Shown: piece after piece, positions 46,961-48,966 of the stretch
How positions within the stretch are numbered: position 1 is the stretch's first letter
Layout: each line of letters opens with the position of its first letter
Source: an uncultured bacterium
GTDB lineage: Bacteria; Patescibacteriota; Patescibacteriia; SG8-24; DYFX01
Length of the DNA stretch: 64,000 nucleotides
Assembly: GCA_937900255.1 (NCBI GenBank)
Contig: CALCDZ010000003.1
Coordinates: 127,149-191,148 of the forward strand
Reading direction: 5' to 3'
Position numbers and translations under genes: made by a program
Notes under the pieces: model-generated
Told to the model about the DNA's origin: nothing
What the model saw: the letters and a program-made list of their open reading frames with translations, nothing else
Database searches by the model: none

Positions 46961-47190
46961 CCTTTTCCGGTCAGACGCTGTAGCGCACGCGTTTCGACGC
47001 GTCTGACGCTCTGTCTGACCGCCCTTTCCGGCGAGATGCGATGCTTTGGCCGCTCTTCGTGAGCGAACCTGAAACTGCATCTCGCCCCTTCTTCAGGGAG
47101 CCTCATGGGAACCCTGAAGAGGGTGCGCACTTCTACCTGCATTTCGATGCGTGCGTGCATGCGCACTCTCGCCCTTTTCCGTGCCGGTCC
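46961..47190 (+). repeat. structured repeat unit B (modules 1-3 complete, tail truncated, ending in the first 19 nt of a further unit, CCCTTTTCCGTGCCGGTCC)
   Basis: Same stems as A (CCGGTCAGAC 46967-76 / GTCTGACCG 47013-21, enclosing 36 nt; GGCGAGATGC 47030-39 / GCATCTCGCC 47077-86, enclosing 37 nt). The enclosed sequences differ from A. Confidence 0.8.
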
Positions 47191-47230
47191 TCTGGGATCG
47201 GCGATCAACCCACAACCGACAGGAGCATGC

Positions 47231-48484
47231 GTGAGCGATAACATCCGACGATACATCGGCATCCGCCACCGTACCAAGCGCACCGCCGACGGCGAGGCAC
47301 GACCGACGCAAGTCGCCATCCTGCAAGGAGGCAAGGTCCGCAAGATCGATCTCGAGACTGAAGATGACGAGCTTGACTTCCTGCTCGCCCGCCTGCCCGC
47401 CTCGTGGCGGATGCTGGCGGACGGCGAGGATGTCCCGTCCGGCGTCTTGGCGCGTCACGTCAAGGAAACGGCCAAGGGCCGTAAGATCCCGGAGACGTAC
47501 GACGGATTCAAGGCGGGGGACACGATCGCGGTCGTCGCGGGCGGAAGCGGCGGTAACCTGTCCTTCGCCCTCTCGCGGCGTGCCGAAGAGATCGGCGCGG
47601 AAGTCCTGTGCATCCCGACGGGCACGCTCAAGGACCAGCGCGGCGATGCCGCGAAGGAAGATGATGCGTCGACGCTGGTGAAGCTGGTCTCCGAGCTCAA
47701 GGAGCTCTTCAAGCCCGTCACCTCCCGCGACCGGGAGCTGATCTCGCTCGTCGAGACCTGGCGCGACCGCGAGGAAGCCATGAAGGCGCGCATCGCGGCC
47801 GAGCAGCGCCTCCGCCAGCGGCTGATCGGCAAGGTCTTCCGTTCTTCGGAAGGCCGCTACCCGGAGGGTGCCATCGAGGATGCTTTCGACGAGGCGCGCG
47901 CGAACGACGTCATCGTCCAAGCGCTCGTCAAGGAGGAAGCGCGGCTCAAGGTCGCGGTCGAGGAGGCTGTCGAGAGGATGCCCGTCTATCGGGAGTTCCT
48001 TTCGGAGGTCAAGGGCTGCGGTCCGCTCCTCTCGGCGCGCATCATCGCGGCCGCCGGCGATATCCGGCGCTTCGCGACGATCGAAGGCTTCAAGGCCTAC
48101 CTCGGCGTGCACCTGCGCGAAGGCGCTTTCCCGCGCCGCAAGGCCGGGACGCGCGCCAACTGGAACGCGCTGGGCCGCCAGGGGTTCTACCTGCTGGCCG
48201 ACCAGTGGGTGAAGCGCCCCGCTTCCGAGTGGGGGATCAAGCTCCGCGCCTGGAAGGTCGAGTTCCGGAAGAAGCACCCGACGCCGGTCAAGGACGGCAA
48301 GCGGACGCTCTACACCGACGGCCACATCCACCGGATGGCCATCTGGCGTTCGATCACCCGCTTCGCCGAGGCGCTCTACCGCGCCTGGCGGAAGATCGAG
48401 GGCCTCTCCGGACCGCCCCAGACGCCCAAGAAGGTCCGGCCCGGAACGCCCGCGCTCCCGTCCGAGACCTTCGCGACCGCGTAG
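47231..48484 (+). CDS. IS110-family-like protein (Transposase_20 HhH domain; divergent N-terminal DEDD-like region with substitutions at expected catalytic positions); 417 aa from GTG 47231
   Basis: C-terminal LSEVKGCGPLLSARIIAAAGDIRRFATIEGFKAYLGV matches the IS110/IS116/IS902 HhH signature. The N-terminus aligns by eye to the IS110 DEDD fold (IGIRH.., IAVVAGGSGGNLSFAL, IPTGTLKDQ, KEDDASTLVKL). SD AGGAG sits 5 nt before the GTG. The track ORF begins at ATG 47105 inside repeat B. Confidence 0.7.
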   Translation: MSDNIRRYIGIRHRTKRTADGEARPTQVAILQGGKVRKIDLETEDDELDFLLARLPASWRMLADGEDVPSGVLARHVKETAKGRKIPETYDGFKAGDTIAVVAGGSGGNLSFALSRRAEEIGAEVLCIPTGTLKDQRGDAAKEDDASTLVKLVSELKELFKPVTSRDRELISLVETWRDREEAMKARIAAEQRLRQRLIGKVFRSSEGRYPEGAIEDAFDEARANDVIVQALVKEEARLKVAVEEAVERMPVYREFLSEVKGCGPLLSARIIAAAGDIRRFATIEGFKAYLGVHLREGAFPRRKAGTRANWNALGRQGFYLLADQWVKRPASEWGIKLRAWKVEFRKKHPTPVKDGKRTLYTDGHIHRMAIWRSITRFAEALYRAWRKIEGLSGPPQTPKKVRPGTPALPSETFATA

Positions 48485-48494
48485 TCCGCACGCG

Positions 48495-48526
48495 CGCCCG
48501 AACAACATCGTTGTCCGGGCGTTTTT
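48495..48526 (+). terminator. intrinsic terminator after the IS110-like gene (CGCCCGAACAAC-ATC-GTTGTCCGGGCG + T5)
   Basis: 12-bp stem with one mismatch, then TTTTT, 11 nt after the stop. Confidence 0.65.
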
Positions 48527-48686
48527 ACGTCTTGACACGATGAACATGCCGTGATACGAAGGCGTGTCGGTGGACGCCAGACGAGCTGCCTCCTACGGAG
48601 GCGAAGATCGTACTGTCCGCCGCACCTTTCAGGGTTGAGCGTATGCATGCTTGCCTTTTGAGGCGACGATGTCGATGTCCAACCCT

Positions 48687-48966
48687 CCCTTTTCCGGTCG
48701 GACGATATTACCCGCACGTTTCGACGCGTAAGTCGGTTTGTCTGACCGGCCCTTTCCGGCGAGATGCGAAAAAACGCCACGTTCGTGATGAACGTCTACA
48801 AGCCCGCATCTCGCCCCTTCTTCAGGGAATCTCAAGGGAATCCTGAAGAGGGTGCGTTCGGAGACGTGTAGCTTACCGGCACGTGAGACCCTTTGCACCC
48901 TCGCTCTTTACGGATTGGACGCTCGGACCCATGTCCTTTTGGACGCTGCGCCCGTTGTCCAATCCA
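48687..48966 (+). repeat. structured repeat unit C (complete modules 1-3 plus tail), preceded at 48662-48686 by a 3' fragment of a tail module
   Basis: Stems CCGGTCGGAC (48694-703; G-U wobble versus A/B) / GTCTGACCGG (48740-49) enclose 36 nt. GGCGAGATGC (48759-68) / GCATCTCGCC (48806-15) enclose 37 nt. Module 3 and tail are conserved with unit A. Confidence 0.8.

Follow-up and report, generated by a model that had tools for sequence, protein, structure and literature searches.

TIGR-Tas systems are RNA-guided DNA-binding systems, first described in 2025-2026, and Tas proteins, according to the literature, target DNA rather than RNA. The CPR protein CsTasR (Candidatus Staskawiczbacteria), for which RNA-guided repression was shown experimentally, is encoded between two arrays, carries R and V (R8, V126) at the first two RuvC positions and a beta3-beta4 insertion, and has no Y/H processing loop (Xu et al. 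2026, 10.64898/2026.09.09.750476). In the same work, the stem-loop tigRNAs of CPR bacteria present two 10-nt spacers with a hairpin of ~5 bp between them and CUU at the stem base. TaTasR, from a dual-repeat TIGR-TasR system of Thermoproteota (9MTY; Faure et al. 2025, PMC12045711), associates a RuvC domain, a coiled coil and a Nop domain with a dual-spacer guide bearing pseudo-symmetric box C/D pairs; its RuvC domain is active (D11) and cuts DNA, and its 36-nt guides come from alternating short repeats. Homologous RuvC-like and Transposase_20/Nop-like domains occur in the IS110/IS1111 bridge-RNA recombinases (IS621, 8WT6; ISCro4), which use one gene-adjacent structured RNA with two guide segments in internal loops. 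In archaeal and eukaryotic box C/D sRNPs (Nop5/Nop56/58), a coiled-coil Nop-domain dimer holds a two-guide RNA bracketed by box C-/D-like elements.

The locus described here occupies positions 46592-49068 of the window, i.e. the whole 64-kb stretch of DNA that was analysed. We consider, with a probability of about 0.88, that a Patescibacteria (CPR) bacterium carries here, on its chromosome, a single, self-contained module of the stem-loop TIGR-Tas type, and that the TasR of this module is an RNA-guided repressor, as predicted. A predicted nuclease-dead, IS110-related TasR is encoded there with an array of hairpin guide RNAs on either side, about 15 guides in total: array 1 holds eight dual-spacer and two spacer-less hairpins, array 2 seven dual-spacer hairpins and one spacer-less. 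The host is placed by the adjoining GyrB, which is 87% identical to Patescibacteria proteins, and an independent assembly is identical across both arrays.

The arrays on both sides of tas, the R and V at the RuvC positions, the beta3-beta4 insertion, the lack of a Y/H processing loop, the two 10-nt spacers, the inner hairpin and the CUU at the stem base are thus all as in CsTasR and the CPR tigRNAs; this likeness is drawn from the published description of CsTasR, a protein of 547 aa, compared with 417 aa for the TasR studied here. Unlike the published CPR stem-loop arrays, those of this locus combine four stem classes in cyclic order with a spacer-less hairpin, in a super-period of ~277 nt, an arrangement that we did not find described in the available part of that report. 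Among PDB entries, TaTasR ranks first whether compared by sequence, profile or fold, and has the same domains and guide principle, but the RuvC domain of our protein is predicted to be dead and its guides are hairpins of ~55 nt with variable palindromic stems. In contrast to IS110/IS1111 recombinases, TasR lacks the serine nucleophile and part of the DEDD motif, and stays below the family cut-offs; its RNAs are many single-loop hairpins rather than one two-loop bridge RNA, and the gene is single-copy and syntenic, with no element ends. Compared with box C/D sRNPs, the locus encodes no partner of the fibrillarin or L7Ae type and the boxes are reduced to CG and (U/C)G. No Rfam family was matched, either over the whole window at gathering thresholds or over 46500-49150 at E<=1.

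The tasR gene (47231-48484, plus strand) begins, as the first-pass annotation of this DNA had read it, with a GTG at 47231 behind a Shine-Dalgarno sequence AGGAG (47221-47225), and encodes 417 aa. The NCBIfam model TIGR_Tas_endo (NF052498) recognises the protein with 128.2 bits (cut-off 100; E=4.2e-37) over profile positions 7-215 of 215. The IS110 model NF033542 gives 49.7 bits for a cut-off of 140, so membership of the IS110 family is not reached, and NF051857 gives 17.2 bits (cut-off 180). From Pfam, DEDD_Tnp_IS110 remains below its cut-off of 29 (15.1 bits) and Transposase_20 matches partially (28.9 bits). The top PDB match is the TIGR-TasR 9MTY, both in a sequence search (6e-16) and in a profile search (3e-25). 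Foldseek with the AF2 model (pLDDT 92.8, pTM 0.87) places 9MTY TasR at ranks 1-2 (3.6e-13), TasH structures at ~1e-6, and IS621 and ISCro4 as the second-best folds. The protein has the fold of a Tas, with solved Tas structures as its nearest neighbours: a RuvC-like domain at the N-terminus, in which catalytic positions are substituted and a stretch is inserted between beta3 and beta4, a coiled-coil dimerisation helix and a Nop/IS110-type RNA-binding C-terminal domain. The disordered C-terminal tail of 28 aa has no Tyr or His, a published trait of the stem-loop clades. All the named homologues belong to CPR, and over 300 relatives carry an intact ORF. Public labels of these relatives are "transposase" or "hypothetical protein", an understandable mis-annotation that the present analysis corrects.

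Catalytic residues were assigned by motif and profile alignment, not by residue-level structural superposition. On this basis, the first RuvC position, within GID in IS110, reads GIR (R12) and the second, within VAMEATG, reads IAVVAGG (V102); the third acid falls on K142 or E143 depending on the register, and D145 is retained. The family consensus reads IGIRHR and VAMxLGG at the first two motifs, and CsTasR carries the matching pair of substitutions. Two of the four RuvC acids, and probably a third (K142), thus appear to be lost in TasR. Since D97 is invariant and several acidic positions are conserved, residual nuclease activity is possible. The catalytic serine of IS621 (ESGSS) aligns with E-D-G in the family profile and with REGA in TasR, which leaves no serine nucleophile. 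The complete DEDD motif plus serine of IS110 proteins is thus absent.

Each guide hairpin is composed, in order, of an outer stem, CG, 10 variable nt, (U/C)G, a 5-bp inner hairpin, CG, 10 variable nt, (U/C)G and the closing arm of the outer stem. At the locus, 15 units follow this design; the invariant columns are C8 G9 ... G21 ... G33 ... G45, and the 10/4/10 geometry (spacer, inner loop, spacer) is exact in 29 of the 61 units found by the pattern scan of the window and five orthologous loci. In the whole window, a covariance model found 13 plus-strand matches, every one within 46692-49026 and thus confined to the surroundings of tas, and a single match elsewhere that is noise (E=0.54); the strand of tas scores much higher than the other. 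A strict pattern scan gave 9 strong matches within the locus and 1 outside. The repeat units noticed in the first-pass annotation are therefore real, far beyond chance. Double-sided changes affect 10 of 14 stem pairs (7/9 in the outer stem, 3/5 in the inner one), and 99% of stem cells pair as opposed to 23-55% in a slid-partner control, a statistic inflated by the prior selection of the units for pairing; the covariance-model matches outside the training set are independent support. In unrestricted folding, mean stem formation was 0.56 for native stems vs 0.21 for homogenised ones, and with a base-pair span <=75 nt it was 0.94 vs ~0.99, i.e. no difference; the idea behind this comparison, that unlike stems in adjacent units guard against misfolding, was not adopted. 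The short linkers listed all contain CUU (14/14), as does the junction after the last unit (T16), within C-C-U-U-U-type tracts, and CC(Y)TTT sites number 20 on the plus strand and 0 on the minus strand in the 1.2 kb of arrays.

The ~277-nt repeat corresponds to a block of four guide hairpins plus one spacer-less hairpin, and this super-unit, with its four distinct stem classes (H1, H2, H4, H5) and the spacer-less H3 in a fixed cyclic order, is kept in the orthologues. Its direct copies begin at 46683, 46960 and 48687, and an incomplete one at 48966; they are too diverged for Tandem Repeats Finder, which was blind to the period. All units lie on the plus strand. Array 1 opens with T1 (46626-46683; stem GTTCGG../..CCGAAC, spacers GGACCTCAAT and TACACGGCGA), parsed manually from the fold and missed by the covariance model because of an internal 2x2 loop in its stem; the GTTCGG class also provides the first unit in three orthologous loci (L016, L009, L012). 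This hairpin and the promoter-like motif in front of it thus come before the first repeat copy. Block A (46690-46960), supported by covariance model, pattern scans and fold, comprises T2 (H1 stem CCGGTCAGACG, 46690-46745; model match at 46692, 51.2 bits), T3 (H2 stem GGCGAGATGCG, 46754-46810; at 46756, 26.7 bits), its H3 (46812-46849; fold), T4 (H4 stem GAGGGTGCG, 46843-46894; at 46843, 45.6 bits) and T5 (H5 stem CGGATTGGATG, 46904-46960; at 46906, 21.4 bits), with the linkers CCCUUUU, CCCUUUCU and GCUCCUUAA. Block B (46968-47170; covariance model, pattern scan) contains T6 (H1, 46968-47021; at 46969, 48.0 bits), T7 (H2, 47030-47086; at 47032, 30.3 bits), its H3 (47088-47125) and T8 (H4 variant, 47119-47170; at 47119, 43.4 bits). 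It has no H5 unit, in agreement with the earlier remark that the second copy was truncated at its tail.

Array 2 begins with T10 (stem CGGTGGACG, 48568-48622; model match at 48568, 25.4 bits, outside the training set), whose class GTCGG(Y)G is also the first to follow the second promoter-like motif in L009, L016 and L015. Next comes T11 (48631-48686; at 48633, 41.2 bits), with a diverged H5-class stem AGGGTTGAGCG/TGTCCAACCCT that shows compensatory changes. Repeat-like sequence does precede the complete third copy, as had been proposed, but the supposed tail of ~25 nt is the 3' arm of this complete hairpin. Block C and the start of block D (48694-49028; covariance model, pattern scan, fold) comprise T12 (H1, 48694-48749; at 48696, 34.5 bits), T13 (H2, 48758-48815; pattern scan), an H3 (48816-48854), T14 (H4, 48848-48902; at 48848, 27.7 bits), T15 (H5, 48911-48966; at 48913, 48.4 bits) and T16 (H1, first of block D, 48973-49028; at 48975, 42.0 bits). 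Three units are irregular: T12 and T14, in their inner hairpins, and T5, by a 3-nt insertion; T12 and T14 may be degenerate.

Two promoter-like motifs, a leader and two terminators complete the locus. P1 (46592-46620, plus strand) precedes array 1 and tas, with a -35 TTGACA (46592-46597) that overlaps the stop codon of the PAP2 gene (46593-46595), a 17-nt spacer and a -10 TACCTT (46615-46620). A TTGACA-N17-TA(C/A)(C/T)(T/C)T motif stands directly 5' of the first hairpin in L016, L009 and L012, and P1 would function as a promoter. The tas leader (47172-47230, plus strand; alignment and fold) consists of a CUU-containing linker, a small hairpin (47183-47203) and the Shine-Dalgarno sequence. It has a conserved (T/A)TCAACC box and can be aligned with its counterparts in L012, L014 and L016, and its hairpin is kept with compensatory changes in L012, a 73%-identical orthologue with a different array. 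The 19 nt CCCTTTTCCGTGCCGGTCC at 47172-47190, previously taken for the beginning of a new repeat unit, are indeed present and resemble one; they are in fact the linker and the 5' arm of the leader hairpin. After tas lies an intrinsic terminator, as already noted (48495-48526, plus strand; hairpin CGCCCGAACAAC..GTTGTCCGGGCG followed by TTTTT), with an equivalent hairpin and T-run 3' of the stop codon in L012, L016, L009 and L015. The ~135 nt that follow had been called unique sequence; they turn out to hold P2 and the complete hairpin T10. P2 (48532-48560, plus strand) has TTGACA (48532-48537), a 17-nt spacer ending in TGA and TACGAA (48555-48560), and is kept in position and sequence in four to five orthologues (L016, L012, L009, L015). 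A bidirectional terminator predicted by folding (49036-49068, either strand) would be common to array 2 and gyrB, whose stop codon is at 49069-49071 on the minus strand; the element AAAAGAGAGCC..GGC(Y)CTCTTTTT closes array 2 in L012, L015 and L016. Generic searches for sigma-70 promoters and terminators picked up none of these proposed elements, P1, P2 and the tas terminator included, so the case for them is one of conservation across orthologues.

We then compared the locus with those of its relatives. In five orthologous loci (67-77% identical), the stem classes and their cyclic order match but the spacers are almost entirely different (mean identity 5.6/20, as different as random sequence). 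At these distances the loci preserve the stems, the nucleotides of the boxes, the linkers, both promoter-like motifs and the terminators, and spacer length is held at 10+10 nt. Arrays of the same kind flank the gene on both sides in every orthologue. In the close relatives L018 and L019 (GyrB 87% identical), the site is empty: gyrB and PAP2 are 38 nt apart, with neither gene nor array, and in L018 just a related terminator separates them. The gene and its arrays therefore form one module. In the window, tas is single-copy in a secE-PAP2-gyrB neighbourhood, and several orthologues adjoin the same secE, PAP2 or gyrB genes, a synteny that the two shortest contigs do not show. Neither multiple copies nor identical ends at unrelated loci, as expected of a mobile element, were observed; gene and arrays are either all there or all missing. 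L017 has a 368-aa ORF where tas would lie, which was considered and is not a Tas.

The first-pass annotation had proposed, as one of two readings, that an IS110-family element (~47191-48661) entered a tandem array already in place, either within one of its units or in exchange for the body of that unit. The explanation as weighed here also covers an array of REP-like palindromes. The weak Pfam matches, the IS621 and ISCro4 folds and the order of hairpin classes, which roughly runs on across the gene (H1-H2-H4 | tas | H5-H1-H2-H4-H5-H1), go in this direction. However, the Tas model passes its cut-off where the IS110 model does not, the position of the IS621 serine is occupied by another residue and the DEDD motif lacks two to three of its residues. 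Moreover, the array units occur nowhere else in the 64 kb, and every orthologue has the flanking arrays together with the promoter-like motifs, leader and terminators, i.e. signals of its own. The comparison of empty and filled sites, set beforehand as the deciding one, also goes against an insertion: L018 and L019 show no array at all instead of an array with one intact unit. We thus regard this explanation as highly improbable. The array-free empty site rules out a REP/BIME-type target array as well, and the habit of IS110 elements to target REP sequences has no relevance to this locus. The other reading offered at the time, that the units are amplified RNAs of the element itself, was right in that they are guide RNAs working with the encoded protein; they are tigRNAs, however, rather than left/right-end bridge RNAs, the protein they work with is the effector of a Tas system rather than a transposase, and the whole is a syntenic single-copy module of the chromosome, not an IS.

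Within TIGR-Tas systems, two further explanations were weighed against RNA-guided repression, both in the light of target searches. Self-targets of the 15 spacer pairs were sought in the window, in both geometries and with gaps of -2 to +2: the best matches (14-16/20) equal those of shuffled spacers. Likewise, 55 units from six loci gave at best 15/18 against 168 kb of loci, as in the null. For IMG/VR, the query was an 18-nt composite (spacer A positions 2-10, N0-2, reverse complement of spacer B positions 2-10), a geometry inferred solely from the published 3' overhang. Five of the seven units scanned had no match; T3 had 2 and T16 had 7, on unrelated contigs of 35-55% GC with no second spacer match, which we read as chance. 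No Tas relative was found in IMG/VR with two peptide patterns. A decaying relic, whose protein and hairpins are inherited while the variable segments drift neutrally and guide nothing now, would account for spacers that differ between orthologues like random sequence, for the lack of targets in the window and the 168 kb of loci, and for the irregular units. It is nonetheless very unlikely: the ORF is intact here and in its many relatives, spacer length, stems, boxes, linkers, promoter-like motifs and terminators are kept across the orthologues, and T5 and T15 retain 16 of 20 spacer positions. Alternatively, TasR could be a working nuclease that cuts invading DNA in defence, rather than a binder and repressor. 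The NCBIfam family is named an endonuclease, dual-repeat TasR proteins, including one from Parcubacteria, cut DNA according to the literature, D145 and other acidic residues are conserved, and a module that is present or absent in close relatives with hypervariable spacers is expected of defence. Against this stand R and V at the first two canonical RuvC positions in both TasR and the family consensus, the two stem-loop TasR tested in the literature (PateTasR and CsTasR), which repressed transcription without cleavage, and the lack of a phage match in the IMG/VR scans. This explanation is unlikely, though less so than a relic.

RNA-guided DNA binding and transcriptional repression are thus the likely function of the module, and we infer its working, from transcription units and processing to nuclease loss, as follows. 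P1 would drive array 1, the leader and tasR as one transcript, as no terminator lies between them, and P2 would drive array 2. The precursor would be cut in the CUU-containing linkers of 7-12 nt, as suggested by published small-RNA data on CsTasR and BlTasA, to release single hairpin tigRNAs. A TasR dimer would assemble on each hairpin via its box C/D-like pairs CG/(U/C)G, those capping the outer stem and those at the foot of the inner 5-bp hairpin, and the two spacers would pair over ~9-10 nt with opposite strands of a DNA site of ~18 bp. Because two, probably three, of its four RuvC acids are replaced (R12, V102, probably K142; D145 kept), TasR is predicted to bind this DNA without cutting and would act as an RNA-guided repressor.

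The comparison of loci also bears on how such arrays grow. L013 and L014 differ by one period of 212 nt, the breakpoints lying within identical sequence, and a 41%-identical Saccharibacteria relative follows a like principle with unrelated stems and a period of 222 nt. Within our locus, T3 and T7 have spacers A alike at 7 of 10 positions, and T5 and T15 have spacers alike at 16 of 20. The whole-period difference and these likenesses can be read as traces of growth by super-units. We tentatively propose, as a possibility that is at present less probable than not, that the super-unit is the true growth unit of stem-loop TIGR arrays, that whole periods are gained and lost by unequal recombination, that new guides arise by mutation of duplicated units and not by capture of foreign DNA, and that the P1-array-tas-array-terminator cassette is gained or lost whole. 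If true, this would explain how, with no adaptation genes, TIGR arrays come by new spacers.

The locus belongs to a known kind of system, to which it adds a well-documented example, with higher-order periodicity and whole-period indels as modest new details. It offers a natural stem-loop TIGR-Tas locus resolved into all its parts (about 15 guides, the leader, the two promoter-like motifs and the two terminators) within its chromosomal context. The known picture of TIGR-Tas is unchanged, and testable leads are added. Array expansion and targets are the questions that the discoverers of these systems left open; the higher-order period with its whole-period change, the different spacers despite kept stems and signals, and the module-free but otherwise identical gyrB/PAP2 junction of close relatives all bear on them.

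The window carries, between PAP2 and gyrB (gene order secE, small ORF, PAP2, TIGR-tas module, gyrB), direct repeats that have diverged and are each about 277 nt long. They start at 46683, 46960 and 48687, and a further, partial copy starts at 48966. Both sequence reading and a repeat scan detected these repeats, and an ORF of 417 aa lies between them, with an AGGAG motif, a GTG start at 47231 and a stop codon at 48482-48484. The first-pass annotation described the repeats, the ORF, its SD and GTG and a 19-nt string (CCCTTTTCCGTGCCGGTCC, 47172-47190, confirmed by direct reading) essentially correctly, and was incomplete in the two flanks. 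It considered the gene as an IS110-like element, either inserted into a pre-existing array or accompanied by its own amplified end RNAs. The best-supported reading of this locus is a stem-loop TIGR-Tas module, with a probability of about 0.9. This kind of system was described in 2025-2026 (PMC12045711; bioRxiv 10.64898/2026.09.09.750476), and our locus is very likely among the 20,096 tas loci catalogued there.

The product of the ORF matched the NCBIfam model NF052498 ("TIGR-Tas system RNA-guided endonuclease") over the whole profile (E = 4e-37, 128 bits for a cut-off of 100 bits), whereas it reached only 49.7 bits with the NCBIfam IS110 model, whose cut-off is 140 bits. Pfam gave a partial match to Transposase_20 (28.9 bits) and a sub-threshold one to DEDD_Tnp_IS110. 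The top match of a PDB sequence search was 9MTY, the structure of TaTasR (E = 6e-16, or 3e-25 with the family profile), followed by the IS110-family recombinases IS621 and ISCro4 (about 1e-3). With 63 homologues as input, AlphaFold gave a confident model (pLDDT 92.8), for which Foldseek ranked 9MTY (3.6e-13) before IS621 and ISCro4 (about 1e-7) and the TasH structures (about 1e-6). In the profile alignment, the 'ESGSS' of IS621, which contains the catalytic serine, is opposite E-D-G of the family profile; the tas product reads 'REGA' there and has no serine nucleophile. An IS110 transposase was rejected on the basis of the insufficient IS110 score, the absent serine and the match to the Tas model. 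More than 300 homologues were found, labelled "transposase" or "hypothetical protein" in public sources; all those with a named organism belong to the CPR (Niyogibacteria, Campbellbacteria, Doudnabacteria, Paceibacterota). Two peptide patterns used on IMG/VR found no relative of the tas product.

At the position of the IS110 GID motif, the family consensus is IGIRHR and the tas product reads Y-I-G-I-R12-H-R; at the VAMEATG position, these are VAMxLGGSG and I-A-V-V102-A-G-G, respectively. For the third acidic RuvC position, the candidates are K142 and E143, according to the register; D145 is kept. Exactly the same R and V substitutions at the first two RuvC positions are present in CsTasR from CPR (R8 and V126), a transcriptional repressor without DNA cleavage activity (Xu et al., bioRxiv 10.64898/2026.09.09.750476). 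In the AlphaFold model, beta3 and beta4 are separated by additional strands and a helix, which are comparable with the insertion of CsTasR. The C-terminal tail (28 residues) is disordered and contains neither Tyr nor His, in agreement with the stem-loop TasR clades, which lack the Y/H tigRNA-processing loop (bioRxiv 10.64898/2026.09.09.750476).

Folding and two pattern scans showed that each unit of about 277 nt consists of five hairpins, four of them of a single design. The outer stem (8-11 bp) ends with C-G and is followed by 10 variable nt, then by an inner hairpin with a (U/C)-G opening, about 5 bp, a loop of 3-5 nt and a C-G closing, a second segment of 10 variable nt, and finally (U/C)-G, with which the 3' arm of the outer stem begins. 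Both variable segments are thus bracketed pseudo-symmetrically, by CG in 5' and (U/C)G in 3'. In published tigRNAs, the order is box C, spacer A, box D, loop, box C, spacer B, box D (PMC12045711), and the CPR stem-loop variant carries a secondary hairpin within its loop, with spacers of 10 nt (bioRxiv 10.64898/2026.09.09.750476); the hairpins of the window match this logic, specifically that of the CPR variant, by their bracketing, loop hairpin and 10-nt spacers. The dual-spacer units number 15 in all: eight precede tas (T1-T8) and seven follow it (T10-T16). Their outer stems fall into classes H1 (CCGGTCAGACG), H2 (GGCGAGATGCG), H4 (GAGGGTGCG) and H5 (CGGATTGGA(C/T)G). All 14 short linkers listed (7-12 nt or less) contain CUU, the published processing mark of tigRNAs (bioRxiv 10.64898/2026.09.09.750476), as does the junction after T16. 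The fifth hairpin, H3 (CUUCUUCAGGG...CCUGAAGAGGG; 46812-46849, 47088-47125 and 48816-48854), is plain and spacer-less and always lies between H2 and H4 units, with a 3' arm that adjoins the H4 stem and overlaps it in part. This hairpin is kept in four orthologous loci (L009, L014, L015, L016) with covarying upper stems; a processing site, a folding aid or a degenerate unit are candidate roles.

From the window and four orthologous loci, 28 canonical units were aligned without gaps, with C8, G9, G21, G33 and G45 as invariant columns. Stem cells were paired in 99% of cases, against 23-55% in slid controls, with both-sided changes in 10 of 14 pairs, a statistic inflated by the choice of these units for their pairing. 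As an independent test, a covariance model built from the canonical units was run on the 64-kb window. Its 13 matches on the + strand, six of them not in the training set, are all within 46692-49026, with a single match elsewhere in the window (E = 0.54). Scores on the minus strand at the array positions were far lower, showing that the hairpins have the orientation of tas. No Rfam family matched them.

We then considered the flanks of the gene. The 59 nt upstream of the GTG, which include the 19-nt string described as the start of a new unit, form a conserved leader (CUU linker, small hairpin at 47183-47203, (T/A)TCAACC box, then SD) that aligns with those of the orthologues and shows compensatory changes in the hairpin of L012. 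The string therefore belongs to a conserved feature and is not what an insertion left of an interrupted unit. The 3' flank contains a hairpin with a T-run (48495-48526) and, in the stretch taken as unique sequence, TTGACA-N17-TACGAA (48532-48560), both conserved in position in L009, L012, L015 and L016, and then the complete unit T10 (48568-48622). What had been taken for the 25-nt end of a tail is part of T11 (48631-48686), an H5-class unit that is complete and has a compensated stem. Upstream of T1, TTGACA-N17-TACCTT (46592-46620) overlaps the PAP2 stop codon, an arrangement kept in L009, L012 and L016, and the second array ends with a terminator common to gyrB, conserved among orthologues. 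We infer the putative promoters and terminators of the module from this conservation; a generic promoter/terminator scan flagged none of them.

The comparison with orthologous loci, suggested by the first-pass annotation, decided between its two alternatives. In the orthologous loci (L009-L016; Tas 67-77% identical to that of the window), arrays flank tas on both sides, and the stem classes and cyclic order H1-H2-(H3)-H4-(H5) are kept. In L018 and L019 (GyrB 87% identical), gyrB and PAP2 are convergent and 38 nt apart (9071-9108 in L018), i.e. a single terminator, and neither tas nor any match to the hairpin model was found over 16 kb, the whole 2.4-kb module (window 46596-49068) being absent. 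It is likewise absent from L017. The gene and its arrays are therefore gained or lost together, and neither occurs without the other in the compared loci. An IS110 insertion into a pre-existing array is thus refuted, as relatives with an empty site have no array and the protein is a Tas; of the second alternative, the RNAs do belong to the gene, and the transposase identity falls. No target-site duplication or boundary repeat was seen. Both arrays are identical in an independent assembly (L008), which argues against an assembly artefact.

Where contigs are long enough, synteny holds: gyrB is also downstream in L012 and L015. The GyrB neighbouring our module shares 87% identity with Patescibacteria proteins. 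In L009-L011, the module is flanked by secE and PAP2, at the opposite side of the latter; L013, L014 and L016 are short contigs whose gene calls lack these neighbours. In L016 (2300-2860), the array-2 terminator is followed by a remnant of about 30 nt resembling the gyrB 3' end, then by a 135-aa ORF, the apparent real gyrB 3' end being about 500 nt beyond the remnant, which suggests an insertion with duplication of this end. An ORF of 49-51 aa between rplK and nusG, on the opposite strand to both (window 44539-44694, + strand), was also called in L009-L011 and L018/L019, and had no Pfam match.

The spacers of L009-L016 are unrelated to each other and to those of the window (on average 5.6 of 20 positions identical, as in random pairs). 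Only two pairs of near-identical spacers are common to different genomes, both between L014 and L016: 361-413 and 639-691 (17/20), and the tas-proximal H4 units 936-986 and 726-776 (about 18/20 with a 1-nt shift), in which spacer A shows partial complementarity to spacer B. Within the window, the H5-class units T5 (46915-46949, with a 3-nt insertion) and T15 (48922-48955), on opposite sides of tas, share 16/20 positions, the other paralogous pairs being near random; a recent duplication or the constraint of a common target could explain this. L013 (1-210) and L014 (620-1040), with identical Tas proteins, differ beside tas by exactly one 212-nt period (H3-H4-H1-H2). The breakpoints fall in a stretch of about 50 nt where the repeat is identical, and one inner loop differs by 2 nt. 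This fits unequal recombination or, alternatively, a repeat collapse in short-read assembly.

More distant relatives (L001, L003, L004; 41-49% identity) build their units on the same design from different stems. In L004 (Saccharibacteria, Tas 41% identical), long arrays on both sides of tas (2900-3830 and 5170-6250) combine three stem classes (GAGAGGGAC, AGCGGAC, GGAGGAAGAC) and a spacer-less hairpin analogous to H3 (CCTCTCTC..GAGAGAGG) with a period of 222-223 nt, and the box nucleotides differ (GAC|U ... U|GUC). Higher-order periodicity therefore seems to characterise this TasR clade. Differing neighbouring stems as a guard against misfolding gave an outcome that changed with the folding model.

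The published 3' overhang implies that one target strand consists of spacer A and, after it, the reverse complement of spacer B, and targets were searched on this basis in both spacer orders. Neither the 64-kb window nor 168 kb from related loci gave a match above shuffled controls. In IMG/VR, five of seven 18-nt composite patterns had no match, and the other two had a few, in unrelated low-GC contigs without a second spacer match, which we read as chance.

In the proposed mechanism, two transcripts carrying about 15 tigRNA hairpins would be processed at the CUU linkers, and each hairpin would be bound by a TasR dimer, its two spacers pairing with opposite strands of a DNA site of about 18 bp. 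As RuvC is predicted to be inactive, the outcome would be DNA binding and transcriptional repression rather than cleavage. By analogy with CsTasR and from the motif analysis, this TasR is thus probably a repressor and not a nuclease.
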